Shown here in pieces: positions 2,801-23,055 of a DNA stretch of 64,000 nt (within the stretch, counting starts at the first letter, position 1; each line of letters starts with the position of its first letter). The translations under genes were made by a program, and so were the position numbers. The notes beneath the pieces were generated by a model. The model had not been told where the DNA came from and ran no database searches. It saw nothing but the letters and a program-made list of their open reading frames with translations. The stretch comes from an uncultured Gemmatimonadota bacterium (lineage in GTDB: Bacteria > JAAXHH01), in assembly GCA_951812955.1 (NCBI GenBank), contig OX638340.1, positions 2,528,001-2,592,000 on the forward strand, written 5' to 3'.

Positions 2801-5868
<3,068 letters not shown>

Positions 5869-5921
5869 TGCTCCAATTTATGTCGTCGTTCTCTCATTCC
5901 ATGTAATTGCCAACCCATTTC

Positions 5922-6039
5922 TTCCGGTGGCGATAGCGGAGGGGAAACACCTCTTCCCATTCCGAACAGAGTAGTTAAGCCCTCTTGCGCCGATGGTACT
6001 GCTTGGGTGACCTTGTGGGAGAGTAGGACGCTGCCGGGG
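5922..6039 (+). rRNA. rrf: 5S ribosomal RNA
   Basis: ...CCCATTCCGAACAGAGTAGTTAAGC...GCCGATGGTACTG...GGGAGAGTAGGACGCTGCCGG, with terminal helix pairing. Ends are approximate. Confidence 0.85.
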
Positions 6040-6050
6040 GATGCATTGAA

Positions 6051-6084
6051 GGCGCTCGATTCATTTCGAGCGCCTTTTTTGTTT
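6051..6084 (+). terminator. rho-independent terminator of the rRNA operon
   Basis: GGCGCTCGA (6051-6059), 6-nt loop, TCGAGCGCC (6066-6074), followed by TTTTTTGTTT. Confidence 0.7.
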
Positions 6085-6147
6085 GGGGCTAATGAAAGCT
6101 TTAGATCGCTAGCGTAGTCTGGTTGTCTGGCCAGGTCCGGTCGTCGT

Positions 6148-6822
6148 TTACGCGGCGGTGTTTACAATGCGTCCGTCGAAGAGGCGGATGATCCGGTGGG
6201 CGTGATCGGCCAGAACCTGGTCGTGGGTCACCATGATGATGGTCGTGCCCGCCTCGTTGAGGCCGTTTAGCAGTTCCATGACCTCCGAGCCGTTGGCAGA
6301 ATCCAGGTTACCCGTCGGCTCATCCGCCAGGATCAGCTTGGGATTGCCGATGACCGCCCGCGCCACGGCTACGCGCTGTTGCTGGCCGCCGGAAAGCTGC
6401 TGCGGGAAGTGATTACGCCGGTGGGGGATCTGCATGTGGTCCATCGCCGCATCCACCCGTTCCTTGCGCTCCTGCTTGGACGTGCCCAGGTAGATCAGCG
6501 GAAGCTCGATGTTCTCGTAGACGGTCAGTTCGTCGATCAGGTTGAAGCTCTGGAACACGAAGCCGATGTTGTTCTTGCGCAGATTGGCTCTTTGCCGCTC
6601 GGAGTGGCCGGACACTTCCTGGTCCAGGAAATGGTATTCCCCGCCCGTAGGGTTGTCGAGAAGGCCGAGGATGTTGAGCAAGGTGGACTTGCCGCAACCC
6701 GACGGCCCCATGACCGCCACGAACTCGCCCTGGTCCACGGCCATGCTCACGTCGTTCAACGCCGTCGTCTCCACCTCTTCGGTCGCATAGAGTTTCTGCA
6801 AGTTGCTGGTCGCTATCATCAC
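6148..6822 (-). CDS. ABC transporter ATP-binding protein (MacB/LolD-like), cassette A
   Basis: Walker A GPSGCGKST, signature LSGGQQQRVAVARA, and Walker B LILADEPTGNLD. 224 aa. Confidence 0.9.
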   Translation of the reverse strand: MMIATSNLQKLYATEEVETTALNDVSMAVDQGEFVAVMGPSGCGKSTLLNILGLLDNPTGGEYHFLDQEVSGHSERQRANLRKNNIGFVFQSFNLIDELTVYENIELPLIYLGTSKQERKERVDAAMDHMQIPHRRNHFPQQLSGGQQQRVAVARAVIGNPKLILADEPTGNLDSANGSEVMELLNGLNEAGTTIIMVTHDQVLADHAHRIIRLFDGRIVNTAA

Positions 6823-7014
6823 ACACCCCTTTTGCAGTTTATCGGTATGCGTCGCACCTTAATCATTCGACTTGTGTGCGATGCGCATTGTTTCGTCGCG
6901 ATGTTGTGCATGCTTGTAAATGCTCTGCTTCACTAAGTGTTCGAGTGAGGGCGAAGGCGATTCGTGGAAGGCGGTGCTCCAGGATCAACGCTCTCAATAC
7001 TGAAGTGAAGAAGT

Positions 7015-7521
7015 TCAATCCGTACTATCCGGCAAATTCACTCCAAATTCCTTGATAAACCGCTCAAAGAAACCGGCCGACCTGTATTCCAACAGCACGT
7101 TTACAGGTTCTCCATCCATGCCCGATATGCCGAGCGGCTTTTCTCCCAAGAAAAATTCCAACCCAAGACTATCCACTTCCGGGTAACCGGATGACCGAAT
7201 AATCCACGCCGTGTCGACGACACCAGTTGCGTTCGAATGGACTCGAAGCAATACTTCTCCTTCGTTGATGAACTCGGGCGGAAGCGCTACGGTTAATGGC
7301 ATTAATGGTATTTCCCCATTTGAGCTCTCATCCTTGGAACGGAGAGTGTCTGATTGTCCTGTGCTATCCTGTTCCAGGTCGGTCATCGTCGTATCTATTA
7401 CAGTTTCGCCTTCCCGGTTCACATCGTCCTTTCCTTCACATGCCGTGTGACTCAGGATGAGGAAAAGCGACACCAGCGCGCATAGACTGATCACAGTCTT
7501 TTTTACCATTTGTTGAGTCAT
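7015..7521 (-). CDS. putative lipoprotein with a TonB_C-like C-terminal domain, cassette A
   Basis: Start chosen at MTQQMVKKTV because GGAGGA lies 9 nt upstream. Signal plus Cys (LILSHTAC). The C-terminus GEVLLRVHSNATGVVDTAWIIRSSGYPEVDSLGLEFF resembles the TonB C-terminal fold pattern. The listed ORF extends to 7632. Confidence 0.55.
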   Translation of the reverse strand: MTQQMVKKTVISLCALVSLFLILSHTACEGKDDVNREGETVIDTTMTDLEQDSTGQSDTLRSKDESSNGEIPLMPLTVALPPEFINEGEVLLRVHSNATGVVDTAWIIRSSGYPEVDSLGLEFFLGEKPLGISGMDGEPVNVLLEYRSAGFFERFIKEFGVNLPDSTD

Positions 7522-7651
7522 CGACCTTGATCCTCCAGATTGCGACGTTTCCAGTCTATCGGTGGAATACCGGTTGTCCCGCTCAGAATCCATGGTCTTC
7601 GACGTATTTGGCATCAGACCGTAGCCCGGCACCGGCCGGCGTCTATATCGT

Positions 7652-8540
7652 CTACCGGCCCGTCACTTCGATTCGATTCCGGATGCCACGCGTGTAAGTC
7701 AGATGCCCGCGTCGGTCAATCCAGATCCCTTCGACGTGAGGCAAATCATCCAGTAACCGCTTTGAATTCTCGACTCCCATGACGTACGTCGCAGTCGCCA
7801 GGGCGTCCGCCGTCATGGCGTCCGGGGCGATGACCGTGGCGCTGAGCACGTGGTTCGATGAAACCCCCAGCCGTGGATTGAGAATGTGAGCGATACGAGG
7901 GCCCTGGTGCAGTCTATAGTTCTCATAGTCTCCTGCCTTCGCAATGGCCTCGTCTTCGAGTTCGACCATGGCGCATAGTGCATCCATCCGAGCGGTATGG
8001 TGAACGTATCCCGATGCGCCACAGGCGAGTAAGCTCGAGCCATCACAGGGCAAAGATGTCTCCTCCGGCCGAAACCAGGCCACATCGGACCCGGTGGTCC
8101 CGCAACGCCCCGACCGCCCGATCCACCATCTTGCCGATCTCCCTGATCCCGCCATCGGCTTCGAGGGCGACGAGCAATCGAACGTTGTTGCACACGGGAC
8201 AACGAAGATCCTCCTGTACCTCGTAAACGTACCCTACAGGATCGCCCTGTTCACCGAAAATCACGTAGCGGTCATATTCCCGAAAGTCCTCGTGCTTCCG
8301 GGATTCGGCCATGTGGAACGTAACCGAAACAAACTCCGAAACTGTCGGTTCATCGAGCGGTGGAAACAGGTTGGACATGCCGGCTAGCTCGTTTGACATC
8401 CTGTAAAGCGACGGGTCGGATCCGACTACATCGGTTCCGCCGGATCCCATGAGATAGATGAGATTCACGGCCACGACTACGGTGCCTGCTCCGGCGATCA
8501 ACACCACCGCCATTCGACTACGTTTCAAAAACTGCGCCAT
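7652..8540 (-). pseudogene. deletion-fused remnant: N-terminal part of the FMN_bind membrane protein joined to the C-terminal part of the ApbE flavin transferase, with an in-frame TGA and a frameshift
   Basis: Aligned by eye to intact cassette B genes. Residues 1-~131 match the FMN_bind protein up to ...CPVCNNVRLLVALEADGGI. It then switches to ApbE-like GKMVDRAVGALRDHRVRCGLVSAGGDIFAL. A TGA at 8043-8045 aligns with a Gly codon. The same frame continues WLELTRLWRIGIRSPY. A +1 shift near 7980 leads into LCAMVELEDEAIAKAGDYENY...ADALATATYVMG (ORF 7652..8155). Confidence 0.8.
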
Positions 8541-8582
8541 AGGTAAGTCACCCGAATGGACGTCTGAAGAACGTCGGAAACG

Positions 8583-11027
8583 CTACTCGTACCTCAACGC
8601 TTCAACAGGATTCGACCGCGCCGCTTTGAGGACGTGTAGGCCGACCGTGGAGGCCGCTACGGCAAGAATGGCCAGGCCCACCAGGACAAAGAGCGCCGGG
8701 TTGGGCGCAATGCGATAGGCGAAGTCACGCAGCCAACTTTCCATGACGAGGTAGGCGATCGGCCAGGCGATGACGCTCCCCGCAATGGCCATGATCACGA
8801 ACTCTTTCGACAGAAGCTGTACAAGTTGCGCCCTGGTCGCCCCCAAAATCTTGCGAACGCCGATTTCCTTCGTTCGCTGGTGCACGGTGAGGGAGACCAG
8901 GTTGAATAGCCCCAGGAAGGTCAGCACAATGGCAAGCAACGCGCATATTCCGAGGAGCGTGCCAAGGCGTTCTTCAGCCAAATACAGCTGGTCTATATCG
9001 TCTTCGAGAAAGGAATAGACGAGCGGGATTTCCGGGTAATGGGATCTCCAGACGCTATTGAGGTCCTCGAGCGCGGAGGCCGTACTCCCAGGTTGCAGTC
9101 GAACGCTCATGTGTTCGCCAAAGGAACTGCTTAAGAATACCATGGGCTCGACGGGCTGGTAAAGAGAACGAAAGTGGGTGTCTTGAATCACGCCGACGGC
9201 TCTGCCGCGCTGGACGTACTGCGGTAAGACGATTTCGATCGTCTTGTCCAGGGCCACTTCAGCGGAACTCCATCCCAGATGCCGGACGGCCGTTTCATTC
9301 AGGACTACCTCGAATACGGCGAACGGATTGAACATCCTCATATCTCTTGGCTTCAGATTCGAGCCCAGCACCAGGCTTATGTCCAGGGTCTCGAAAAAGT
9401 CGTGCTCCACGTTCACTATGCGGATAGACGAGGATACCGGCATATCGCTGTCGTCCCCGCGTCGAACCATGGTTTCCCCGATCATGCCCCTCCCCGGCGC
9501 GAGCCCGGGAACGTAATCCGACAGGGAGACGCCCTCGATGTACGGTGACCGCAGCAACTCGTTCTGGAATCCATCGGAGGATCTAGGATTAAACTGTTGG
9601 GAGCCTTCAGAAGAGCTTGATTCAATGGCCTCCACGAAGAATCCCGATATGAGGGGAACGACTATCACATTGGATTTTTCGAAGCCCGGAGGTTCGTTCA
9701 TCATGAACCGCAACTGGCTGTAGACCACACCCGTGCCGATGATCAGGATGGCGGAAAGGGCGAACTGGACCGTGATAAGAATACGCTTCACAAAGGGATA
9801 GTCGATCGCCTGGCTCAACCGGCGGCTAAGTGCGTCCATCGGCCGGTATCCAGACAGAACCATGGCCGGAAAACTCCCCGAGAATGCCCCCACGAGGACT
9901 GAAATGGCGATCAGACCAAGCCATATGTCGAGGTGTTGTATAAAACCCATGGACAGTGCCTTCCCAGTCACGGCGTTGAAGGCTGGAAGCGAAAGCCGGG
10001 CAAGCAGAACCGCCAGGACGAGTACCAGGCCTGAGATCATTACGGACCCGCTCAGATACTGCACGACAATACGTGAACGGTTCGCGCCGTACACTTTCAT
10101 TAGGCCCACTTCCTTCGCGCGGGCTGTCGACTGAACCATAGACAGATTGATGAAGTTGATGCAGGCGATCAGCAGCAGGAAAACGGCCCCCGTCATGAGG
10201 GTGTAGAGATAGGCCACACTGCTGTTCGCCTCGAGTTCGTTGAGTAGATTGGAACGCAGGTGAATCGCGGTCAGCGGTTGAAGGGAAAACCGGTAGTCCC
10301 GGATGCTCTCCCGGTTCACGGGCTTGATCTCGGTGTCGAAGTAAGCCTGGAACTTGGACGTCAGTTCCGGCACCAGGCTCTGATCGTGCAAACGCAGGTA
10401 CGTATAGTAGGTTGCGCTCCACCAGTTGTCCATGAACTGCAATTCCGTTCCGAAAGACAGGAACATGTCCGCGGTGAAATGCGTATGGCCCGGGAAGTCC
10501 TCCATGACGCCCGTGATGGTAAAGCTGTACGTGTTGTCCAGGCGCATCACCTCGCCCATGGGGTCCACTTCGCCGAAGTACTTCCTTGCCATCGATTCCG
10601 AGATGACCGCTTTGTTCTGCCCCTCCAATGCGGTGGCGGGATTCCCCTTGAGCAGGGGGATGGTGAAAACGTCGAATAGCGAAGGCTCGGTCCAGTAGAC
10701 CCGGTCTTCGTAGAACTCCCGGTCACCGAACCGTATAAGCCAAATGGCCCGAGTCGCCCGCATGCGGACAGCGCTTGCTACTTCCGGAAAGTTCTGTTTC
10801 AGCGTGGAAGCCGCTGCGCCCGGCGTGCGCGCGTTGTTGCCATTGATCAGCCGATAGACCTGCGGAGCGTACCTGTGGTGTGTATCGTAGGTCCATTCGT
10901 CCTTTATGTACAATAGCGTGAGTACGCACGCGGCCATGGCGATGGCCAGCCCCGTGACGTTGATGGTCGTATGGGATCTTTGCTTGAGCAGGGCTCTGAC
11001 GGCTATTCTGAGGTGGTGGGTGAACAT
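8583..11027 (-). CDS. MacB/FtsX-type ABC transporter permease (double FtsX module with large periplasmic domains), cassette A
   Basis: ~815 aa and roughly 57% identical (hand count over the first 100 aligned residues) to ORF 14447..16864. The C-terminal ...NPVEALRYE and TM/periplasmic-domain/3-TM pattern occur twice. Start set at MFTHHL (11027; GGGAG upstream; aligns with the paralog N-terminus). The ORF also opens at 11057. Confidence 0.85.
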   Translation of the reverse strand: MFTHHLRIAVRALLKQRSHTTINVTGLAIAMAACVLTLLYIKDEWTYDTHHRYAPQVYRLINGNNARTPGAAASTLKQNFPEVASAVRMRATRAIWLIRFGDREFYEDRVYWTEPSLFDVFTIPLLKGNPATALEGQNKAVISESMARKYFGEVDPMGEVMRLDNTYSFTITGVMEDFPGHTHFTADMFLSFGTELQFMDNWWSATYYTYLRLHDQSLVPELTSKFQAYFDTEIKPVNRESIRDYRFSLQPLTAIHLRSNLLNELEANSSVAYLYTLMTGAVFLLLIACINFINLSMVQSTARAKEVGLMKVYGANRSRIVVQYLSGSVMISGLVLVLAVLLARLSLPAFNAVTGKALSMGFIQHLDIWLGLIAISVLVGAFSGSFPAMVLSGYRPMDALSRRLSQAIDYPFVKRILITVQFALSAILIIGTGVVYSQLRFMMNEPPGFEKSNVIVVPLISGFFVEAIESSSSEGSQQFNPRSSDGFQNELLRSPYIEGVSLSDYVPGLAPGRGMIGETMVRRGDDSDMPVSSSIRIVNVEHDFFETLDISLVLGSNLKPRDMRMFNPFAVFEVVLNETAVRHLGWSSAEVALDKTIEIVLPQYVQRGRAVGVIQDTHFRSLYQPVEPMVFLSSSFGEHMSVRLQPGSTASALEDLNSVWRSHYPEIPLVYSFLEDDIDQLYLAEERLGTLLGICALLAIVLTFLGLFNLVSLTVHQRTKEIGVRKILGATRAQLVQLLSKEFVIMAIAGSVIAWPIAYLVMESWLRDFAYRIAPNPALFVLVGLAILAVAASTVGLHVLKAARSNPVEALRYE

Positions 11028-11040
11028 GATCGGGTGCTCC

Positions 11041-13503
11041 CTACGGTTCCAGGACAAGAAAGTTGACCGACTTGAAGACGCGCTGATCAGCGTGCCGGTC
11101 CGTCAGCGTCACGGTCAGCACATACTCCCCGGCTTCGAGATCCGTGGTGTCCATCGCGGTGTATTCAGCCTCTTCCGCTGAACTCCCCTCGCCTTCGAAG
11201 AAGGACATCACAGTCTGCATGTCGTCCGGCCTTCTGGCCCTGCGGTTCCTCAGTGCGGGCATGCCCAGGGGCGTGATTTCGTAAAGTGTCTCGTAGGAAG
11301 TGCGTCCGGCGTTGCCTAAATCCAGGTTGTACAATTCGTAGTAAACGTAAACGGGGTTTCCCCGAATGTAGAGCCGTCCCGGATTGGGCGTGATATTCAA
11401 CCCCTTGCGCACAAAGGGGCCCTGTACGCCTGACGGCGTGATGAGGGTGGCCAGCTTGAGATCGCTGATGAGCAGGTCGCGGCCGCGGTAGTCGGACAGC
11501 GTGACTGGCTTGCGATACACTCCGACCCGGCTCGTTGTCTCGTCCCGCACCTGGACTGCCAGCGTGAAACTACCCGACGGCGCGACAACGCTTTCAGGCA
11601 GGGTATACACCGGAACTTTCACGTTGCTTTCAGCCATCATACGCTTCGGCCTGTCGAAGGGACCGAAACCGAACTCGTGGGTGAACTGGGGGCTCATGGT
11701 CGAATCACGCAGGGTGACCAGGTGCGCGAGCCGGGTGCTGTTACCCCTGCCGTCCGAGACATCGCCGAACTGCCACACGGGGATGCTGTAGGACAGGTCC
11801 AGTTCCGTCGCGCCGTTGTCAGCCCTGTAGCTTACGGCGTCGAAGGCATATTCGAGTGGTTCTCCCCCGAAGTCGTGCAGGAATTCCTCGGGACTGCGCT
11901 TGATCAGGTTCTCGGCAACTCGTTGAGGATGATGGGTATCGTTTCGACGCATCAACTCGAAACCCGTGATGTCACCAAACGAATCCCCACCTTCATAGAT
12001 TGTCTGAAGTGGATAATCGAATTTCCCACCGCCCATCTGGTCCACGAAAAACAGTTCAAGATTATGCTGTACGTAAACCCAGCTTTCGACCTTGTACGAT
12101 TCTCCGACCAGACGTTTGAGTAACTCGAATGGATTGCTCTCCGACGAGCTCCCCCAGAGATCCACCGATCCCAAATCGAATCCCTGGAGCTGCATGATCT
12201 CCTCATCCAACAACGCCACCGGATCTCCCCTGCCCACCCGCAACACGTAGCCGGACTGCATATTCCGCACGCGTATTGCGTCCACGGCAGGAATCGCCGA
12301 CGGCTTGAAAACGGAAAAGGTGTTCCCATGCCTGCGCAGCAAGAAGTTGCTACGGTCATCCGGCGTACCGTATCGAACGTGAATCTCCCCGCGGCGGTCA
12401 AAGGGATACTGGCCCTCTGAGAAATGATTGCGGGCGTACAGTACGCGCCGGTAGTGTTCCACCAGGCGCTCGTTTTCGACGGTGGCCGGATTGGAATCCC
12501 GTGCGTTCCAGAAGGTCTGCCACAGCGCGTCGCGTTCCGGTCCTTCCACAGCCTCCCAGGTCTTCAATTCATCGGGAGGCGCGACATGTCGCAGGTCCCG
12601 GTACACCGCCTGCTCATCGGGATCGAGACCCGATATATAGGTCTCCAGGGCTTCCTGCAATCGATCGAACCCCCGTTCAGTCGAACCCGAAAGCATGCTG
12701 AACTGAAGCTGCAGGGTCCTGACCTCGTCCGCGACGGCATCTCCTGATTCTTCGACCAACTGTCCCAGGAGTTCAGCACCTATTTCGAACGCTTCGGCAC
12801 GAAGACACACATTGGTAAACCGCTCGAAGGCCCGACGGTGTTTGGGGTTTACCCGGTACTGGTTGAAATAGGCGGCTATCGCTTTTTCGTAGTCCGGCAA
12901 CGGGGGACTTTCATAACATCGTCCCAGTTGATAGTAGGCGTCCTCATGGGATGGATTCAGCTCTACGACCTTGAGGAAATACGTCCTGCCATCCCGGTCG
13001 CTGCCCACGATGGTATCTACTTTTTTATCATTCATGAAGGACATGCCCAGGTAGTACTGGGCGTCCGCGTTGTCCGGATCCAGGCGGATCGCGGTACGCA
13101 ACGCGTTGCGGGCATCCAGCTTTCTGTTTTGCAACTTCAGGTAGGTCTTCCCCAATCCGATGTGACCAGGCGCCCATTTTTTGTCCTGCCGCACTGCGCT
13201 CCTGAACGAACTCAACGCCTCACGGTAGTCGCCCAATTCATACCGCGCCATTCCGAGCCAGTAGTGGGCGGGCGCCGAATCCCCGTCAGCCTTGACGGCC
13301 ATTAGGAAGTACGGCAGCGCTTCCGCGTATCGTCCCTGTTGGTAAAGTGATTTGCCTTTTTCGTGGGCTGGCAGATCAATATCGGATACGGCCGATTGCG
13401 GCGGGGAAGTCCAGGTCTGGGAATGGCCGGGTAAACTCAGTGCAAGCGCGGCGATTGTAAGAAGCAGGCGGACGTACACGTAGTGCCTCTTTGGACGAAT
13501 CAA
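11041..13503 (-). CDS. secreted TPR-repeat protein with a GWxTD-like domain
   Basis: Signal peptide, multiple TPR-like repeats (AxxYxxLGxxY patterns), then ...LWQTFWNARDSNPATVENERLVEHYRRVLYARNHF...FDRRGEIHVRYGTPDD. This resembles the GWxTD domain family, but the motif position reads YPFDRRG. Confidence 0.55.
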   Translation of the reverse strand: MIRPKRHYVYVRLLLTIAALALSLPGHSQTWTSPPQSAVSDIDLPAHEKGKSLYQQGRYAEALPYFLMAVKADGDSAPAHYWLGMARYELGDYREALSSFRSAVRQDKKWAPGHIGLGKTYLKLQNRKLDARNALRTAIRLDPDNADAQYYLGMSFMNDKKVDTIVGSDRDGRTYFLKVVELNPSHEDAYYQLGRCYESPPLPDYEKAIAAYFNQYRVNPKHRRAFERFTNVCLRAEAFEIGAELLGQLVEESGDAVADEVRTLQLQFSMLSGSTERGFDRLQEALETYISGLDPDEQAVYRDLRHVAPPDELKTWEAVEGPERDALWQTFWNARDSNPATVENERLVEHYRRVLYARNHFSEGQYPFDRRGEIHVRYGTPDDRSNFLLRRHGNTFSVFKPSAIPAVDAIRVRNMQSGYVLRVGRGDPVALLDEEIMQLQGFDLGSVDLWGSSSESNPFELLKRLVGESYKVESWVYVQHNLELFFVDQMGGGKFDYPLQTIYEGGDSFGDITGFELMRRNDTHHPQRVAENLIKRSPEEFLHDFGGEPLEYAFDAVSYRADNGATELDLSYSIPVWQFGDVSDGRGNSTRLAHLVTLRDSTMSPQFTHEFGFGPFDRPKRMMAESNVKVPVYTLPESVVAPSGSFTLAVQVRDETTSRVGVYRKPVTLSDYRGRDLLISDLKLATLITPSGVQGPFVRKGLNITPNPGRLYIRGNPVYVYYELYNLDLGNAGRTSYETLYEITPLGMPALRNRRARRPDDMQTVMSFFEGEGSSAEEAEYTAMDTTDLEAGEYVLTVTLTDRHADQRVFKSVNFLVLEP

Positions 13504-13625: not shown

Positions 13626-14297
13626 TTACGCGGCCTCCGTCACGATCCGTCCGTCGAAGAGCCTGATGGTCCGGTGGGCGTGGTCGGCCAGCGCCTGGTC
13701 GTGGGTCACCATGATGATGGTCGTGCCCGCCTCGTTGAGGCCGTTGAGCAGTTCCATCACCTCGGCGCCGTTGGCCGAGTCCAGGTTACCCGTCGGCTCG
13801 TCCGCCAGGATCAGCCTGGGGTTGCCGATGACCGCCCGCGCCACGGCCACGCGCTGCTGCTGGCCGCCGGATAGCTGCTGCGGGAAGTGGTTCCGGCGGT
13901 GGGGGATCTGCATGTGCTCCATCGCCGCGTCCACCCGTTCCTTGCGCTCCTGCTTCGACGTGCCCAGGTAGATCAGCGGCAGTTCGATGTTCTCGTACAC
14001 GGTCAGCTCATCGATCAGGTTGAAGCTCTGGAAGACGAAGCCTATGTTGGCCTTGCGCAGGTTGGCGCGCTGCCGCTCGGAGTGGCCGGACACTTCCTGG
14101 TCCAGGAAATGGTACTCCCCGCCCGATGGATTGTCGAGGAGACCGAGGATGTTGAGCAGGGTGGACTTGCCGCAGCCCGAGGGTCCCATGACCGCCACGA
14201 ACTCGCCTTCGTCCACGGCCATGGTCACATCGTTCAGCGCCGTCGTCTCTACCTCTTCGGTCGCGTAGAGTTTCTTGAGATGTTCTGTCCTGATCAT
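13626..14297 (-). CDS. ABC transporter ATP-binding protein (MacB/LolD-like), cassette B
   Basis: ~92% amino-acid identity (about 18 differences counted by eye over 223 aa) to ORF 6148..6822, with the same Walker and signature motifs. Start set at MIRTEHLKKLY (14297) by alignment. The listed ORF extends to 14450. Confidence 0.9.
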   Translation of the reverse strand: MIRTEHLKKLYATEEVETTALNDVTMAVDEGEFVAVMGPSGCGKSTLLNILGLLDNPSGGEYHFLDQEVSGHSERQRANLRKANIGFVFQSFNLIDELTVYENIELPLIYLGTSKQERKERVDAAMEHMQIPHRRNHFPQQLSGGQQQRVAVARAVIGNPRLILADEPTGNLDSANGAEVMELLNGLNEAGTTIIMVTHDQALADHAHRTIRLFDGRIVTEAA

Positions 14298-14446
14298 GGT
14301 GCGCTCCCGTAGTGTGGTAATACTCCGTATCCACGCATGCCATTTCGGAATCGTTCCTAATATCAAAGTAGCAAATGAAGAGGGTTGCAATTCCAGGTCG
14401 GAGAGATTAACTCCATAGATTGTGCGACTACGTTCATGCTGGAGAA

Positions 14447-16864
14447 TCACTCATACCTGAGCGCATCTACCGGGTTCAACGGTGCTTCTTTTGTAACATG
14501 GAAGGCAATCGTAGCGATGATTACTAACAGAATCCCCATGCTTACCAAGATGTAGAGGCTAAGGGGTGGAGAAACTCGATATGCGAAATCTTGTAACCAA
14601 ACGGCAGTAACCAAGTACGCCAACGGCCACGCTACCAGATTGGCGATCGCTGCCATAACTACAAACTGTCTAGACAGCAACTGAGTCAATTTCATAACTG
14701 TAGCACCCAGGGTCTTGCGTATGCCTAATTCCTTCGTTCTCTGTTTTGTGGTCAGGGAGACCAGGTTGAAAAGTCCCAGGAATGTCAAGATAGTAGCTAA
14801 GATGGTACAGACACCTATAAGCGAACCTAGACGTTTCTCCGGTACGTAAAGTCGATCAATATCGTCCTCCAAGAGGGAATAGATAAATGGAATTTCAGGA
14901 AAATAAGACTGCCAGGTAAGATCTAGGTAACTTAACGCAGATTCCATTTTCCCATCCTGAAAGCGCACCATCATGTGTTCGCCATTACCGTTCGTGAAAA
15001 CCATCGGTTCAACAGGCTGATAAGACGACCGGAAGTGGGCATCCGCAACGACACCTACAACCCTGCCTCGTTGGGTGATCTGAGGGTATACGATATCTAT
15101 CGTCTGGTCTACTGCTGACACTGGAGAAGTCCAACCTAGGTGGCGTACTGCCGTTTCGTTGAGAACAAGCTCGATTACGGGCAAAGGCCCAAAAGTCGAA
15201 TATGTAGCAAGACTCCTGTGCCTCAAAAAGCGTCCGTGTACCAGCTGTAAACCCAGTGTGTTTATGTAATCGTGCTCAACGCCCACAAATCGTACGGATC
15301 TGGAATTCCTCAGACTGTTTCCTGCCCGAGTTCGAACCATCCCATCACCCATTGTACCACGGGCAGGTTCAAGTGCCGGCACATAAGTTGAGAATGAAAC
15401 GCTGAGTACATCTGGCGATCTCAACATATCGTTTTTGAATCCGCTAGGTGGAACTAGTATTCCGCCTGGGAAGAAGCCTGTTATCAGGGGTACATTGACT
15501 ACATTTGATTCGTCAAAACCCTGGGGTTTGGTCAACATGTATTGAATCTGGATGTAGACCACGCAGGTGCTGATAATCAGAATAGTGGAGAGAGAAAACT
15601 GGATGATGATGAGCATCCGTTTCACCAGTGGAAAGTCCACTGAATGGCTGATTCTGTTTCCAAGAGAAAAGAGAGGGTGTACTCCTGACATAACCAAAGC
15701 CGGAAATCCTCCTGAAACGACTCCAACGATTATCGCAACGACAACTATCCCAAGCCAGATTCCAAAGTCTTCAGTAACGCCAAAAGAAAGCGTTTTACCT
15801 GTCAGCCAATTAAATGATGGCAGTGCAAGATAGGTCAAAATGAGAGCTAAAAACAAAACCAACATCACCATGGTTAAGGATGCAATCATATGCTGCCTGA
15901 TAATCTGAATTCGATCAGCACCGAAAATCTTAATCAAACCCACTTCCTTCATCTGATCAGCCGAATGAACCATAGACAGATTGACAAAATTGATTGAAGC
16001 GATGAGCAACAAGAAGATCGCACCTGAAATGAGCGCAAAGATGTAACTCACACTGCTATTCACCTCGAGTTCATTCAAAAGGCGGGAACGAAGGTGAATC
16101 TCCGTTAGTGGTTGAAGTATGAAACTATACTCCCGGATCCACGCGCTGTTGCTAGGTTTTACCGTTGATTCAAAATACCGCTGAAACTTGTCTTCGAGAA
16201 TTGAAGCCTGGTTACCTTCGTTCAACCGGACGTAGGTGTAATAGTCGGGACGCGACCAGTTGTCAATGTAGGATAGTTCATTGCCGAAACTCAGGAAGAA
16301 CCCAGCCTCGAAATGGGAGTTGACCGGGAAATCCTCCATTATCGCGGTAACGGTAAAATCCCATGTGTTGTCGGCTTGCAACACCTTACCGATGGGATCT
16401 TCCTCGCCAAAGTACTTTCTGGCGACTGACTCTGATATAACGACCTTGCCTATGCCATCCAACGCGTTGGTTTTGTTCCCCTTTACAAGTGGTATGGTAA
16501 AGACATCAAACAAGGAGGCTTCGGTCCAGTATACCTTATCTTCGTAAAAAGCACGATCACCGTACTGCATTAGCCAGATGGCCCTGGCCGCCCTTAAACG
16601 AACAGTACTTACAACTTCAGGAAAGTTCAGCTCAAGGGAACCTGAGGCGGCACCTGGAGTTCGGGCATTGGTGCCGTCAATCAATCGGAAGATCTCGTTG
16701 GCGTGTTCGTGGTGAGAATCGTATTTCAGTTCTTCCTGGATATACATCAGGGTTAAAATACACATAGCCATCCCGACAGTTATTCCGCTGATGTTTAATA
16801 TGGTATTGGATTTCTGCTTTAATAGTGCACGGGTGGAGATTTTCAGGTGGTGGGGTAGTTCCAT
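14447..16864 (-). CDS. MacB/FtsX-type ABC transporter permease, cassette B (low-GC)
   Basis: 805 aa, paralog of 8583..11027, with the same double FtsX architecture and C-terminal NPVDALRYE. Confidence 0.85.
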   Translation of the reverse strand: MELPHHLKISTRALLKQKSNTILNISGITVGMAMCILTLMYIQEELKYDSHHEHANEIFRLIDGTNARTPGAASGSLELNFPEVVSTVRLRAARAIWLMQYGDRAFYEDKVYWTEASLFDVFTIPLVKGNKTNALDGIGKVVISESVARKYFGEEDPIGKVLQADNTWDFTVTAIMEDFPVNSHFEAGFFLSFGNELSYIDNWSRPDYYTYVRLNEGNQASILEDKFQRYFESTVKPSNSAWIREYSFILQPLTEIHLRSRLLNELEVNSSVSYIFALISGAIFLLLIASINFVNLSMVHSADQMKEVGLIKIFGADRIQIIRQHMIASLTMVMLVLFLALILTYLALPSFNWLTGKTLSFGVTEDFGIWLGIVVVAIIVGVVSGGFPALVMSGVHPLFSLGNRISHSVDFPLVKRMLIIIQFSLSTILIISTCVVYIQIQYMLTKPQGFDESNVVNVPLITGFFPGGILVPPSGFKNDMLRSPDVLSVSFSTYVPALEPARGTMGDGMVRTRAGNSLRNSRSVRFVGVEHDYINTLGLQLVHGRFLRHRSLATYSTFGPLPVIELVLNETAVRHLGWTSPVSAVDQTIDIVYPQITQRGRVVGVVADAHFRSSYQPVEPMVFTNGNGEHMMVRFQDGKMESALSYLDLTWQSYFPEIPFIYSLLEDDIDRLYVPEKRLGSLIGVCTILATILTFLGLFNLVSLTTKQRTKELGIRKTLGATVMKLTQLLSRQFVVMAAIANLVAWPLAYLVTAVWLQDFAYRVSPPLSLYILVSMGILLVIIATIAFHVTKEAPLNPVDALRYE

Positions 16865-17284
16865 AACTGGCCTACAGATACTTAGTAAATGGTTCTAAGA
16901 GGGTTGTGATTAACGTCGAAGGGGCAGTTGAAAGTCTATAACTGCCTGTACGTTTAAACTCGTCCTCCGGTTTGATCAGCCCCAGACGTTCGCCGAGTGT
17001 TTTGGACTCGTCCACCACTGGCATTCAGCGAGGAGAGCATTTCCGTTGTCGGTGCGTGGAGCGTCGTTTGTTTTTTAACCTTGATGAATTCAATACCCAG
17101 ACGAAGTCGGTCAATCAACTCTTCCAACTGCTTGATTTGAATAGGCTAATAGAGGAAGTCACGGCGAAGGCTTCACTGGCAATATCGCGACTTTGATTCA
17201 GGTAGTTAATGTTGTCGTACGCATCTTAGTCTCCATGTGCGCTGTCAGGTTGGGTCTGTGACGGATTTTGTGTTACTGACTTTA

Positions 17285-17500
17285 TCATGTTAAGGGCACT
17301 TTGTCTTCGTACATGATGATGAACTTGCTGGTGGCGGCCGTCCAGTTGGCGATGGGCCGTGTCTACCTTCGGGCCAGGTAGAGCAGTTTCCTGGCTACCC
17401 CGTCGGTGGGGAAGGCGCCGCCGCGCTATGGTCACCCCCAGTCTGCATGAGCACGTTCACCGCCCGTTACAATTCTGCTTCACATTGCATGGCGGCCAGC
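17285..17500 (-). mobile_element. decayed C-terminal relic of an IS256 (Mutator)-family transposase
   Basis: My own reverse-strand translation gives ...IVTGGERAHADWG*P*RGGAFPTDGVARKLLYLARR*TRPIANWTAATSKFIIMYEDKVPLT**. The block FP(T/S/N)D..A.KLLYLA...NW..A...F.I.F.D is the conserved C-terminal signature of IS256-family transposases. Several in-frame stops are present and no N-terminal part was found. Confidence 0.6.
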
Positions 17501-17707
17501 AATAGACTGGCAAAAGACGGTCAAAGGACAGGCGTAAACTTGTCGCTCTGAGTGCTATCCTTTACATAAACCTCTTCGACTCAGTCGTCTTCCACGGCTT
17601 CTTTATTCAGTCGACGTTTTCATCAAGCCCTTTAGATCCTCGTCGGTCTGTCTTGAAGCTACCGTGTATTTAACACCGCTCCCTTGTCATGAAGTACGAC
17701 CCACTCG

Positions 17708-18709
17708 TTAATTGACAATCTGCAATCTATTCTGGATCCCTCTTGTAAAAATAAACTGTCCATGCTGATCAATCCAGATCCCCTCGACGTATGGCATATC
17801 GTTCAGCAATCTCTGAGAACTTTCGATACCCATAACATAAGTCGCTGTGGCAAGCGCATCCGCTATCATTGCGTCGGGAGCGATAATCGTGGCGCTATGC
17901 ACGTGATCCGTCGAAGTCCCAAGTCGAGGATTGAGTATGTGTGTAATACGGCGACCTTGATTGATTTTGTAGTTTTCATAACCACCCGACGTCGCAACCG
18001 CCTCATCTTCGATTTCGACTGTGGCGCACAATGTATTGGGATGGTATGGAGACCGGATACCAATACGCCAAAGACGTTCAGGTTCTGGCCTTCCCATGGC
18101 AAGAACATCCCCACCTGCAGATATCAACCCGCATCTAATGTGGCGGTTTCGTAATACGTGAGCCATTCGATCCAATCCGTAACCTTTTGCTATTCCGCCA
18201 AAGTCTACCCCATAACCAGACGAAGCAATTCGTACTTTCTGTTCTTGCACTTGCAACTGATTAAAGTCTACCAGTTCGAGCATTTGCCGTAAGCTTCGAC
18301 TTGACGGATCACAATTATAAAATCCCCAGTGGTACATAATCGGTAGAATTGTCACATCGAAGGCACCATCTGTAATCTCGCCGATTCGTCTTGCTGTAGT
18401 CGCGACCTTGATAAAGTGGGGTGTTACGCCATGCCAAAGCCCATACATGTTGTTTACATGCGTAAGTTCACTGGTATTACGATAGAGGCTTAGCAGGCTG
18501 TCAATTTGAGCTAAAGCATCGAAGGCATCATAAATTGATTCTTTACTGTACTCGCATTCCTTGATTACAAGTTCTACTTTCGTCCCCATATGAATCTGAT
18601 GACGACGAACAAGCCTTTGCTTGTCTGACAATCCTGCGCCAAAATTGTATGGCACAAGTAACATTGCCGATGAAAGGCCGACCGATTTTATGAAATTGCG
18701 TCGCTTCAT
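17708..18709 (-). CDS. apbE: FAD:protein FMN transferase (ApbE family) with a Tat-type signal
   Basis: The N-terminus MKRRNFIKSVGLSS is twin-arginine-like. Also ...DFGGIAKGYGLDRMA...ISAGGDVLAMG...WRIGIRSP...ATSGGYENY...HILNPRLG...PDAMIADALATA, the typical ApbE motif series. Confidence 0.85.
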   Translation of the reverse strand: MKRRNFIKSVGLSSAMLLVPYNFGAGLSDKQRLVRRHQIHMGTKVELVIKECEYSKESIYDAFDALAQIDSLLSLYRNTSELTHVNNMYGLWHGVTPHFIKVATTARRIGEITDGAFDVTILPIMYHWGFYNCDPSSRSLRQMLELVDFNQLQVQEQKVRIASSGYGVDFGGIAKGYGLDRMAHVLRNRHIRCGLISAGGDVLAMGRPEPERLWRIGIRSPYHPNTLCATVEIEDEAVATSGGYENYKINQGRRITHILNPRLGTSTDHVHSATIIAPDAMIADALATATYVMGIESSQRLLNDMPYVEGIWIDQHGQFIFTRGIQNRLQIVN

Positions 18710-18778: not shown

Positions 18779-19378
18779 CTAACCTCGATGGATATGCCTA
18801 AGTCTATTGAGAGCATCAACAATATGAATCGAGCTTTTGGTAGCACCTGTGATTCCGTCGATATTTTCGCCTAATACGTAGAAATGTAGGTTCGGTTTCG
18901 ACTTAAATTGCCTCAGAAACCTCGTTTCATCCTCAACAGATAGTGGTTCACCGGAGAGTTCAAGGGGTTCAAGCACTCTGATATCATGGAGCCGACCCAA
19001 GTCATCGAGTGCGACGAGCATTCGGACGTTATTGCAAACAGGACATTTGAGATCCTCCTGTATTTCGTAGACGTAGCCAACAGTGTCGATTCGTTCGTCA
19101 AACACCACATATCGATCGTAACCTCTGAATTTCTCGTGTTTGCTAGAATAGCTTTCAGAGAAAGCGGATATAGTGAATTCCCTTAAGATACGATCGTCAA
19201 GTGGTGGGAATATGTCGGATGAAGTAATCGAACCACTTCCCGATCCCAAGTTCGACACGTGTGAGTAAATCACATCGTCATCACATGAATGTCCGGATAA
19301 GTAGACTATATTGACCACAGCAATTACTACTCCGGTTATAAGAAACATGGTTCTTTGAATGAGTTTGAAATTTCGCAT
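18779..19378 (-). CDS. membrane-anchored FMN_bind-domain protein with a predicted flavinylation site
   Basis: Start set at MRNFKLIQ (19378) by alignment with the cassette A homolog. One N-terminal TM helix. GYVYEIQEDLKCPVCNNVRMLVALD core. DGITGAT at 18839-18859 matches the Dxx(S/T)GA(T/S) ApbE acceptor motif known from NqrC/RnfG. Confidence 0.7.
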   Translation of the reverse strand: MRNFKLIQRTMFLITGVVIAVVNIVYLSGHSCDDDVIYSHVSNLGSGSGSITSSDIFPPLDDRILREFTISAFSESYSSKHEKFRGYDRYVVFDERIDTVGYVYEIQEDLKCPVCNNVRMLVALDDLGRLHDIRVLEPLELSGEPLSVEDETRFLRQFKSKPNLHFYVLGENIDGITGATKSSIHIVDALNRLRHIHRG

Positions 19379-19515: not shown

Positions 19516-19932
19516 TTATCTAAGGCGGAAGCTCATTGGAAAGTAGAATTGCGCAGATATAGGCTTTCCTTCCTTAGTCGCTGGCTTGAAAATCATCATT
19601 CGTGCTTGCGACAGTGCAAGACTATCTAGTTCTGGATGGGTCGACGATTCTATGATCGAAACAGATTCCACCGTGCCATCTGCCTTAGATCTTAAGAGAA
19701 GTACAACATCGCCTTCATTGCTGTACTTATCCTGTGGCGTGGGTCTAAACAATAGTCGTGGAGACGTATCCCAATCACCCACTTTAGCTATAACTTCAGT
19801 GTCAACTTGGGTTTCTTCCACCGGCACACTATCGTTCTCTACATTTCTGTCGTTACTGCAGGAGATGACTAACGAAAAGAGTACAATCTGGGACAGGCTG
19901 AATCGAAGCATTTGTGGAGCCCTTTCTGTCAT
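19516..19932 (-). CDS. lipoprotein with a TonB_C-like domain, cassette B
   Basis: Lipobox LVISC. The C-terminus GDVVLLLRSKADGTVESVSIIESSTHPELDSLALSQARMMIFKPATKEGKPI fits the TonB C-terminal pattern. Confidence 0.6.
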   Translation of the reverse strand: MTERAPQMLRFSLSQIVLFSLVISCSNDRNVENDSVPVEETQVDTEVIAKVGDWDTSPRLLFRPTPQDKYSNEGDVVLLLRSKADGTVESVSIIESSTHPELDSLALSQARMMIFKPATKEGKPISAQFYFPMSFRLR

Positions 19933-20022: not shown

Positions 20023-21735
20023 TCAATCGGGGCTATTGACCCGAGAAGTAAATCGAAAATTGTATTTAAATATCGTATTTTGGGGGACGATGAGTCGTGT
20101 TCCCATAGTGGGCATTAAACGAAACCTGCCTACAGACTCTAAGGCGATACTATCCAGTGCCGGATGTGCTGATGGTGTCTTTGTCCAAATCGAATCTACG
20201 ATACCATTTGAGTCGAAAAGTACGTTCACTGCAATTTCCATTTCGTCAAGATGACCGTACTCAAGAGGGAATGCACGACTCGTAGCCGTACCGAGGTGCA
20301 AGATTAGAGGTTCTTCATACGATGGCACAACATAGTCGTCAATGATCCCGTCGGTCACTAGTCGAATGTATTGGTCATATCCTTCCAAGGATCGCCAGGA
20401 ATCATCTTTTGTGAATCTGGCGATACTCTGTGCAAAAGATGTAAAAGGGAGGTCACCGATACGGCGAGGATGGGACATCATGTTGACGGATTGATTGTTG
20501 GCGTACGATCTGATAAAAAGACTCGATTCATCTATCGGCATGGAAGACACGTTATCGAAGTATCGTGTGAAAGTTGACCGGTCCGACCCGTTGGAATCAT
20601 GGGCTTCGGTGGACGGCATGTTAGTGAAGTATTGAGAGATATCAAATCGGTCTGACCCGCTGGATGCCTGCACTTCGCGATAGGTAGTTGTAGTCAGATA
20701 GTACTCCACATTTGAAACGTAGAATACGGAAATGGTCGCATCATGAGACCGGACGTAGTCTGATATACCACGCAAGGCTGTTTCACCGGCGAAATCACCT
20801 ACGACTGGAACGATCAAGTTCCTCCCGTGCAACTTCTTGACGACGTCAAATGCACTATCATCAGCAAGGAAGTTGGCTTGCTCCCCACTTATCGTTTCTG
20901 CAAGAATCAACTCCCGCAGACTCGGGAAATTAAAGGTTGCATCCCCCGGTGTTCCCAGATCGTACTGGATGTCTAACTGGCTCCTGAAGAAAGCCTGATA
21001 GACTCGTTCGACAGCTTTCATATCTTCCATCGAGTCTATGCCATACGAATGTAAATGGGACTTGATGACCCGGAGATTTCGCTCGTAGAGTTTTACATCG
21101 GGATCTATTCCGTCGAAATATGCGATCAGCGTTGCAACAGATGATTCACTTCGAGACCAGGGCCGGACCGGTCCTCCCTTAAATATCTCGGCCAGGTAGG
21201 AGAGATTCCGGTTCAATGGTTTGCTGAGCAGCCTAGACAGGAATTCAGCACTGTCGCTGGACTGAGCGAAGAGGGACTTGTAGATCAGGTGCAACAGCAT
21301 GTTATCGCGACGAATGTCAACCACGAAAGCCATGTGCGGCCTGGTCTCGGCGATGTAGGTAAAATTCTGTTCGGGGCCGACACCCACATAAACGCCACCG
21401 GAAACGTGCCGTTCGCGTAGTACGGCAAATGGATGCAGGTAAGAAGATTCGTTTGAGGTGAAATTGGTTGAATGAAAGGAGCCACCCGTCTCCGACAGTT
21501 CTCTAATCAGGTTCGAGAAGGCTGGCGTGGACAGTGAGTCCGGGAGGGCACCTGCTCTTGGATATGGCTTTACAGTCCTCTTGTTAGACCAATCAGAAGG
21601 ATTGTAACACTGGACTGCAAACAACATCACGACAACACCTGCCGTTATCCATGTTGTTGTTTTCCATATAACCATATCCGAGGATTTCCAAGCAGCTAAA
21701 GATTGACCTAAGTATTGTGAAAGTCTCTCAGCCAC
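20023..21735 (-). CDS. N-terminally anchored protein: unrecognised ~400-aa central domain plus a TonB_C-like C-terminus
   Basis: One TM helix (WITAGVVVMLFAV). The central region with GVGPEQNFTYIAETRPHMAFVVDIRRDN...HLIYKSLF could not be assigned to a named family. The C-terminus IAVNVLFDSNGIVDSIWTKTPSAHPALDSIALESVGRFRLMP is TonB_C-like. Confidence 0.5.
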   Translation of the reverse strand: MAERLSQYLGQSLAAWKSSDMVIWKTTTWITAGVVVMLFAVQCYNPSDWSNKRTVKPYPRAGALPDSLSTPAFSNLIRELSETGGSFHSTNFTSNESSYLHPFAVLRERHVSGGVYVGVGPEQNFTYIAETRPHMAFVVDIRRDNMLLHLIYKSLFAQSSDSAEFLSRLLSKPLNRNLSYLAEIFKGGPVRPWSRSESSVATLIAYFDGIDPDVKLYERNLRVIKSHLHSYGIDSMEDMKAVERVYQAFFRSQLDIQYDLGTPGDATFNFPSLRELILAETISGEQANFLADDSAFDVVKKLHGRNLIVPVVGDFAGETALRGISDYVRSHDATISVFYVSNVEYYLTTTTYREVQASSGSDRFDISQYFTNMPSTEAHDSNGSDRSTFTRYFDNVSSMPIDESSLFIRSYANNQSVNMMSHPRRIGDLPFTSFAQSIARFTKDDSWRSLEGYDQYIRLVTDGIIDDYVVPSYEEPLILHLGTATSRAFPLEYGHLDEMEIAVNVLFDSNGIVDSIWTKTPSAHPALDSIALESVGRFRLMPTMGTRLIVPQNTIFKYNFRFTSRVNSPD

Positions 21736-21771: not shown

Positions 21772-23055
21772 CTAACAACTTCTACCACCATTACAGTAAC
21801 AACCTACATAGCCCCACACATATGCATCCCCACAGTCATCATAATAACTACAATATACGCGATGGGCCAGGACCGCATAGGCAAAGGAGAAGGGCAACGC
21901 GCACTGCAACCCCACGTGGACGATTCGATCGAGCATCCAGACTATCACGGGTAGGGCTGGACCGGATGCCGGAACCAGACCCCAAGAGGACAGGAGCGTG
22001 CCGGGTTTCGTGATTGTCCACATCGGCGCGAGGATGAGGGCCAGGATGAATCCGGCCTCGATAATCTGGAGGCGTATGCGCTGTTGCTGGCTCGCCACGA
22101 AACGCTGGGCAATCAGTAGGCATCCTGTTAAGATAACAACGAGGAGAGGAAACATTGGAACGGGAATGGGCTCAACTATGCGGACGACGAACTGCGCAAT
22201 CTCATTATTCCAACCATGGGTGATGCTCAGTAAGTAGATCGAATGTAAGACTATCCACACAAAGAGAGGCGTCAGGATGAACAATGCTTTTTTTCGTAAC
22301 CATTCTCCAAAGACAGACGAACTTGGAAAAACAGTTAATATCTGAAAGATAAGAACAGTTTCCAGGATTGTTGCTAATACGACGATGTATATACTGAGCG
22401 ATAGTAACCAAACCGGCCATCCTGCGATCATGGGATGAAAGGCAGGAGACGATGTGAGCGCCGTAGCGAGGAAGAGCAACGCGCATCGAAAGGCGATGAC
22501 GTTTAGATGACTGCGGAATCCCATCCAAGTACCAAAACCTAACAGCACGATCGGGAAGATCAGAAAGGGTCCTCTTTGGAACCAGGTCATCTCCGCGACA
22601 CCCATCACAATCTCCTGCTGATCAACCTGTAGGGTGTAAGGTACCTCTTCGATCTCCTCAAGTGTCATGATACCGGTATGTATCCGATCTTCGCGAAGCC
22701 AGACGATTTCGATACGTTCTCCGGGTTGACTTTGCAAACGTGCCTGGAAATAGGCTTCTGGTCGTGATCTCAGGTCGATTCCATTTACCGATATGATCCG
22801 GTCGCCCGACTGTATTCCTGCCAGGTCGGCCGGACTTCCGTTCTCGATCTGTACTGCGATGATACCTTCGTCTTGGCGAATCCGGACGAGATGAAACCAC
22901 GTACCTTCCTGTAGATTGCTAACGGCGCTCTTCGTCAACCCCGGCGTTTGTATCATCTCGCTACCAAAAAATTGAATGCCGGGCGACCAGTGTTCGATCT
23001 GCGTGAATCGAACAAGTGTCCACGCCACCAGACCCAATTGCATGCATAGCAGCAA
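21772..23055 (-). CDS. PDZ-domain polytopic membrane protein with a Cys/Tyr/Gly-rich tail
   Basis: PDZ-like segment GIIAVQIENGSPADLAGIQSGDRIISVNGIDL, followed by ~8 hydrophobic helices. The tail is YCSYYDDCGDAYVWGYVGCYCNGGRSC. The TTG start is uncertain, because the frame is open 17 codons further upstream with no canonical start. Confidence 0.6.
   Translation of the reverse strand: MLLCMQLGLVAWTLVRFTQIEHWSPGIQFFGSEMIQTPGLTKSAVSNLQEGTWFHLVRIRQDEGIIAVQIENGSPADLAGIQSGDRIISVNGIDLRSRPEAYFQARLQSQPGERIEIVWLREDRIHTGIMTLEEIEEVPYTLQVDQQEIVMGVAEMTWFQRGPFLIFPIVLLGFGTWMGFRSHLNVIAFRCALLFLATALTSSPAFHPMIAGWPVWLLSLSIYIVVLATILETVLIFQILTVFPSSSVFGEWLRKKALFILTPLFVWIVLHSIYLLSITHGWNNEIAQFVVRIVEPIPVPMFPLLVVILTGCLLIAQRFVASQQQRIRLQIIEAGFILALILAPMWTITKPGTLLSSWGLVPASGPALPVIVWMLDRIVHVGLQCALPFSFAYAVLAHRVYCSYYDDCGDAYVWGYVGCYCNGGRSC

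Follow-up and report, generated by a model that had tools for sequence, protein, structure and literature searches.

Strong evidence that a fused FMN_bind-ApbE gene pair in an ABC transporter cassette of an uncultured marine bacterium is a pseudogene

Comparative analyses indicate, with a high degree of confidence, that positions 8540-7652 of the window (the whole 64,000-nt stretch of DNA that was analysed) represent a non-functional pseudogene of two adjacent genes, FMN_bind and ApbE, disabled by a fusing deletion, a nonsense codon and a 4-nt duplication. The original prediction had read the region as a fused pseudogene with a deletion, a TGA and a frameshift, and this core reading is supported by intact orthologues, by a second strain, designated L093, and by a search for homologues. 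The coordinates of all features are compiled in Table 1.

Genomic context and composition of the remnant

The window opens with an rRNA operon, followed on the minus strand by two related gene cassettes, A and B. In cassette A, the permease, the ATPase and the 168-aa gene around the remnant are intact, as had been predicted, but the label TonB_C could not be upheld for the last of them: the 168-aa protein has no Pfam match and scored 22.6 bits against TIGR01352 (cut-off 27.1), all TonB matches being sub-threshold. The 168-aa gene holds the same position in all relatives. No exact protein is on record for permease A (with either of two alternative starts), for ATPase A or for the 165-aa open reading frame (ORF; 8540-8043) of the remnant, and a promoter and terminator scan of positions 6000-9000 gave matches at chance level only.

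Table 1. Coordinates of the rRNA operon, the two cassettes and the parts of the FMN_bind-ApbE remnant in the window.
Feature	Position	Strand	Remarks
rRNA operon	16S 890-2447, two tRNAs, 23S 2801-5868, 5S 5923-6039	plus	opens the window
Cassette A ABC ATPase	6148..6819 (ORF to 6822)	minus	intact; Pfam
Cassette A 168-aa protein	7015..7521	minus	intact; weakly TonB-C-like; downstream of the remnant
Cassette A FMN_bind/ApbE remnant	8540-7652	minus	between permease and 168-aa gene
ApbE C-terminal remnant, shifted frame	7652..7981	minus	ALCAMVELEDE...ADALATATYVMG...IEVTGR, then stop codon
4-nt tandem duplication, GGAT/GGAT	7982..7989	minus	single copy in L007 and cassette B; +1 frameshift
ApbE remnant, codons ~171-222	7995..8126	minus	VDRAVGALRDHRVRCGLVSAGGDIFAL*WLELTRLWRIGIRSPY, read in the FMN_bind frame
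In-frame TGA	8043..8045	minus	GGA (Gly) in L007 and cassette B; followed by WRIGIRSPY
Deletion junction	8127..8136	minus	10 nt (CGGCAAGATG) aligning to neither parent gene
FMN_bind (RnfG-like) remnant	8137..8540	minus	ATG at 8540 to ...ALEADGGIREI, ~134 codons
Cassette A MacB/FtsX-type ABC permease	8583..11027 (ORF to 11057)	minus	intact; 814 aa from ATG; Pfam
Cassette A TPR protein	11041-13503	minus	
Cassette B ATPase	13626-14450	minus	
Cassette B permease	14447-16864	minus	
Cassette B ORF-free gap	16865-17707		between ApbE B and permease B
Cassette B ApbE	17708..18709	minus	intact; 333 aa; full Pfam model; twin-arginine-like N-terminus (MKRRNFIK)
Cassette B FMN_bind	18779..19378	minus	intact; 199 aa from ATG at 19378; flavinylation motif GITGATKSS
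Cassette B TonB_C	19516-19932	minus	
Cassette B DUF7790	20023-21735	minus	

Cassettes A and B were compared by tblastn and blastn together with anchored alignments; a global MAFFT DNA alignment misaligned the 5' half. In tblastn against positions 7400-8800, residues 60-177 of FMN_bind B matched window 8486-8136 (59/118, 50% identity), with FPPLD and CPVCNNVR included, which reproduces the predicted correspondence between 8540-8150 and the N-terminal ~130 aa of FMN_bind. Residues 171-222 of ApbE B matched 8153-7995 (30/53, 57%) in the same frame as the FMN_bind part, and residues 227-331 matched 7978-7664 (72/105, 69%) in a different frame. The coordinates predicted from the sequence were thus correct within about 10-20 nt, but the identity of the surviving parts to cassette B, put at 65-70% in the prediction, amounts to 50-69% by tblastn.

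The FMN_bind remnant keeps the N-terminal membrane helix, FPPLD and CPVCNNVR, and has lost the C-terminal ~70 codons including the flavinylation motif (DGITGATKSS in relatives). The 165-aa ORF gave no FMN_bind domain match in Pfam, and the 167-aa ORF that covers the ApbE remnant (8155-7652) matches positions 180-265 of the 266 positions of the ApbE model only (E = 5e-21). The remnant therefore has neither a complete, uninterrupted ApbE domain nor an FMN_bind domain with the flavinylation Ser/Thr motif, which falls in the deleted part. The nucleotide identity of the ApbE C-terminal remnant to L007, the principal intact comparator (see below), is 91%.

Intact relatives of the gene pair

The homologue search, for which a conceptually repaired 294-aa sequence of the remnant served as the query, yielded 178 matches. 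About 40 of these are intact ApbE proteins of ~300-350 aa (a few are shorter), 70-84% identical over the C-terminal ~55% of the query. A further ~33, with lengths of 183-206 aa, are intact FMN_bind proteins that share 60-87% identity with the N-terminal 37-47% of the query. In the intact FMN_bind protein, the RnfG-like region extends over residues ~88-191. Each of the 178 homologues matches one half of the query, ApbE or FMN_bind, and none spans both halves, which argues that there is no natural fused family; a conserved family of this kind had been named in the original prediction as an alternative, and no instance of it was encountered among these homologues. One homologue that is 78% identical (P0010) is labelled 'candidate division Zixibacteria bacterium', a label that was not relied on.

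The comparison with related genomes proposed in the original prediction showed separate, intact genes between the same neighbours in L007, L094 and L097. In L007, a genome of 3.9 Mb, the order of genes is DUF7790, TonB_C, TPR, permease (814 aa), FMN_bind (183 aa), ApbE (326 aa), the 168-aa gene and ATPase; five further assemblies (L008-L012) belong to the same lineage. L097 carries the permease, FMN_bind (201 aa), ApbE (341 aa), the 168-aa gene and the ATPase, with an intact pair and no TPR gene, and in L094, which is 90.6% identical to the window at the nucleotide level, FMN_bind is intact. A protein-based metagenome scan contributed a single close relative, the short contig L098, in which the pair is also intact. 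A genome-contig scan with the ApbE protein P0003 returned only distant relatives (<=42% identity) amid generic ApbE pattern matches, and an exact search of JGI metagenomes with a 25-mer spanning the junction found no match. In L097, an IS3-family transposase gene (rve, HTH_Tnp_1; 5475-6569) is situated between the DUF7790 and TonB_C genes of an A-type cassette.

The fusing deletion

By blastn, window 12087-8137 aligns to L007 5719-9666 and window 8126-6935 to L007 10511-11698, such that 844 nt of L007 are replaced by 10 nt in the window. The net loss of 834 nt equals 3 x 278, which leaves the fusion in frame. The breakpoints obtained with L094 and L097 agree with those from L007 (8137 or 8136 on the left and 8126 or 8125 on the right, blastn). 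The junction, predicted at 8129-8150, is thereby placed at 8136-8127 from three intact comparators. The deleted segment comprises FMN_bind codons 114-183, with the Pfam domain and the flavinylation motif, a 120-nt spacer and ApbE codons 1 to ~170, with the export signal, the N-terminal half and the GGIAKG region; these amounts (about 66-70 aa of FMN_bind, the spacer and ~170 aa of ApbE) agree with the losses that had been predicted.

The suggestion that the junction lies at a GGI tripeptide shared by the two genes, as a trace of microhomology, was rejected. The corresponding sequence in P0044, an intact FMN_bind orthologue, is ALEADGGIKEI, and the DNA of L097 (GATGGCGGGATCAAGGAGATC) agrees with the window through GAGATC. 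GGIREI therefore belongs to FMN_bind itself, and the break falls 9-18 nt beyond it, at 8136-8127, a stretch that shows no clean microhomology.

Nonsense codon and frameshift

Both interruptions of the reading frame were recovered as predicted. In tblastn, the TGA lies opposite a glycine codon, and WRIGIRSPY continues in the same frame after it. The codon falls in a patch (8027-8045) of 8 substitutions in 18 nt, which changes GRPAPN to *WLELT (asterisk, stop) in surroundings that are 91% identical to L007. No second copy of the mutated patch, which might have served as a template, occurs within the window. A simple deletion together with a point mutation accounts neither for this patch nor for the 10 unalignable nucleotides of the junction; both might, for instance, stem from error-prone repair.

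The +1 frameshift expected near 7980 proved to be a 4-nt tandem duplication at 7989-7982. Here the window reads CCGCTCGGATGGATGCAC against CCGCCC----GGATGCAC in L007, and the removal of one GGAT copy restores RSPYRSDALCAM, as found in intact orthologues (P0004, RSPYRSDALFAL; P0003, RSPYRPDALCAM).

Shared lesions in a second strain

A protein identical to the 168-aa neighbour is encoded by L093, a 173.7-kb contig (NODE_50) from a different ENA assembly, in which the order of genes is histidine kinase (HK), two response regulators (RR), TPR, permease, remnant, 168-aa gene and ATPase, with no cassette B. L093 represents a clearly different strain, as seen from its TPR gene (55-75% identical), the divergence of its permease (dS ~0.10) and the absence of cassette B. 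It has the identical junction, TGA and duplication, and across positions 8600-7600 it differs from the window by 2 nt. Both differences are non-synonymous and affect conserved residues: G88E in the window, where at least 90% of the orthologues have G (FRGYDRY), and C-to-F in L093 at the first Cys of CPVC. As all three lesions are present in this independently assembled strain, they are inherited and are not errors of sequencing or assembly, an outcome that would have overturned the original prediction.

All three lesions were thereby dated to the interval after the split from the intact lineages L007, L094 and L097 (82-91% nucleotide identity) and before the split between the window and L093.

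The divergence between the window and L093 varies along the locus. Between 9090 and 6900, identity amounts to 99.5-100% over the pseudogene and the 168-aa gene, but the adjacent permease has a dS of 0.10 and the ATPase a dS of 0.24, a mosaic that suggests recent recombination across the locus. Over the TPR gene (window 11300-13503, L093 4028-6300), nucleotide identity is 55-75%, with flanking DNA at 97-100%; this gene is either hypervariable or recombinationally replaced.

Residual constraint and age of the pseudogene

Relative to L007, dN/dS is 0.32 for the FMN_bind part, the maximum of the locus, 0.21 for the ApbE part and 0.15 for the intact permease (0.14 for the permease relative to L093). 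Such low values in the two remnant parts (0.21-0.32) imply that most of the divergence built up under purifying selection and hence that the inactivation is recent, in keeping with the prediction of a recently killed gene pair. At columns that are >=90% conserved among intact orthologues, the ApbE part deviates in 11 of 97 (median of 3 in 42 intact orthologues) and the FMN_bind part in 3 of 53 (median of 2), the latter without a clear excess. Together, the dN/dS values and the conserved-column counts show a modest increase only and fit a young pseudogene.

Predicted consequences and alternative explanations

The original genes encoded a membrane-anchored RnfG/NqrC-like FMN_bind protein and its flavin transferase, ApbE. 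A single deletion (~844 nt) removed the FMN acceptor Thr/Ser, the spacer, and the export signal and N-terminal half of ApbE, and produced an in-frame chimera; this chimera carries, in addition, the GGA-to-TGA nonsense mutation and a 4-nt tandem duplication of the slippage type that shifts the frame. Judging from the sequence, neither a flavinylated protein nor a flavin transferase could come from the locus, and its product would be no more than a fragment of 165 aa, anchored in the membrane and with its FMN-binding domain broken, the RnfG-like region (~88-191) being such that the 165-aa ORF comprises the membrane anchor and a broken domain without the flavin site. With no flavin product from the locus, cassette A (permease, 168-aa protein and ATPase) would be left without a flavin module.

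Errors in draft genomes could, in principle, mimic such a pseudogene, with the genes in reality intact: the window, from a contig of 3.81 Mb, is apparently metagenome-derived or draft-style, and homopolymer and indel errors are common in some assemblies. Such errors are, nevertheless, a most improbable source of the junction, the TGA and the frameshift, given that the different strain L093, from another ENA assembly, carries all three with an identical junction, and that base-calling errors do not typically produce a 4-nt tandem duplication or a net loss of 834 nt. Equally improbable is a functional protein, either a short FMN_bind-ApbE fusion or a product of recoding, with TGA read as Gly or Sec and programmed frameshifting. 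The deletion is in frame and the TGA stands opposite a Gly codon, as expected under genetic code 25; yet the relatives have two separate full-length genes instead of a protein that covers both halves (0/178 homologues), and the chimera would lack the flavinylation site, the ApbE export signal and positions 1-179 of the ApbE model. Reassignment or recoding of TGA as Gly or Sec was rejected, as TGA is an ordinary terminator in this genome: it terminates EF-G, permease B, the 168-aa gene and DUF7790 in the window, and 22 of 41 open stretches of >=300 codons, counted in six frames and unfiltered for real genes, end in it.

A slightly less improbable, though still very unlikely, reading is that the 165-aa ORF (8540-8043) is still expressed and retains some role as an N-terminal piece anchored in the membrane, in which case the ApbE portion alone would be dead. 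The start codon and the 165-codon ORF are kept, and the N-terminal part deviates so little at conserved columns (3/53), but its RnfG-like domain is broken, with the flavin site gone, both substitutions that separate the window from L093 are non-synonymous at highly conserved residues, among them the first Cys of CPVC, and its dN/dS relative to L007 is the highest of the locus. Under the preferred reading of a pseudogene that comprises the whole of 8540-7652, the ORFs 8540-8043 and 8155-7652 should not be annotated as genes, and cassette A is to be recorded without a flavin module.

Relation to known flavinylation systems

The remnant 8126-7652 derives from a gene of the ApbE/Ftp FAD:protein FMN transferase family (PF02424) and keeps the C-terminal ADALATATYVMG region, but it differs from that family in having only model positions 180-265 of 266 and in an ORF broken by a stop and a frameshift. 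The remnant 8540-8137, in turn, is orthologous to the N-terminal 113-134 residues of the FMN_bind proteins (183-206 aa) of the RnfG/NqrC type (PF04205), the substrates of ApbE, which relatives encode beside ApbE, but is devoid of a Pfam-detectable FMN_bind domain and of GITGATKSS. With ordinary bacterial pseudogenes it shares the existence of intact orthologues and several independent disabling lesions common to two strains by descent, and its constraint may be mildly relaxed; the fusion of two different genes in frame by the deletion sets it apart as a minor curiosity only. As a pseudogene, the locus is of minor importance, as one more well-documented example of recent gene decay at an accessory locus. 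The bacterium is uncultured and marine, and a TARA sample contained a relative.

In this locus family, an ApbE/FMN_bind pair is coupled to a MacB-type ABC transporter, and each genome has several divergent copies. As in the flavinylation clusters described by Meheust et al. (2021; eLife, PMC8238504), the main catalogue of such clusters, ApbE stands here beside an extracytosolic FMN_bind substrate, but the partners at this locus are a MacB/FtsX-type ABC permease and ATPase and TonB_C-like, DUF7790 and TPR proteins. A text search of the article body of PMC8238504 gave no mention of FtsX, MacB or ABC transporters, and so, with regard to that text, the intact cassette type may be uncharacterised. 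It is conceivable, if rather doubtful, that the decayed pair belongs to a clade-restricted and seemingly uncharacterised type of cassette, with natural knock-outs of different modules in different lineages. The parts of the proposed type are an HK and two RRs, DUF7790, a TonB_C-like protein, sometimes TPR, a MacB/FtsX permease with its ATPase, an RnfG-like flavinylated membrane protein and a Tat-type ApbE. Should the remaining modules still be functional, the transporter and the flavin module would be separable, which would hint at an unstudied connection of ABC-type export with flavin redox chemistry outside the cytosol.

Cassette B and turnover of the cassette family

The original prediction regarded cassette B as a paralog with a live copy of the pair next door. 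The B pair is indeed intact: ApbE B scored 242.5 bits over positions 1-263 of the 266 positions of the Pfam model, and the identical protein was found on 6 metagenome contigs. Cassette B is, however, a divergent copy, and it is absent from L093, which carries the same pseudogene. It is no recent duplicate of A, since far more similar orthologues of cassette A occur in other genomes (73-87% identity; ApbE proteins of 300-348 aa at 73-84% and FMN_bind proteins of 183-206 aa at 63-87%); ApbE B, at 63-64% identity in the homologue search, ranks far below them. The G+C content is 44-50% at 14-24 kb (cassette B and a truncated kinase gene), 60-68% at 24-45 kb and 53-59% in cassette A, and the B-type cassettes of the relatives L001 and L095 are similarly low in G+C. 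In L095, the B-type cassette is flanked before and after by an HK-RR-RR module.

The truncated gene, which encodes a histidine kinase (PDZ-HisKA_3), lies upstream of cassette B (21772-23055) and ends at ~codon 414 of 888. At 21854-21857, 4.7 kb present in L001 and L095 are missing, comprising the C-terminal half of the kinase, two GerE-type response regulators and two small ORFs. Over cassette B, the window and L002 are 99.8% identical, but upstream of this breakpoint L002 has other DNA, which includes a transposase. The L007 lineage keeps its flavin pair intact, but its ATPase gene (L007 11952-12528) is a pseudogene, with a frameshift near codon 100 and a truncation after ~codon 178 of 223; these lesions are reproduced in six assemblies (L007-L012). 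With the flavin pair lost in the window and L093, the ATPase in the L007 lineage and the B regulators in the window, the cassette family is being taken apart differently from lineage to lineage, and such module-by-module loss marks it as a dispensable system with fast turnover.

The gap between the ApbE and permease genes of cassette B (843 nt) contains no ORF of >=120 aa, its short ORFs reaching up to 69 aa, and tblastn of the 168-aa protein against it found no match; the gap is the same in L001 and measures 466 nt in L095. The ATPases of cassettes A (6148-6819) and B (13626-14297) are 89% identical in nucleotide and 93% in amino-acid sequence, whereas the permeases share only ~64% of nucleotides. 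Across strains, the variable sites of the ATPase genes form a mosaic pattern, and gene conversion or homogenisation between the A and B copies is suggested.
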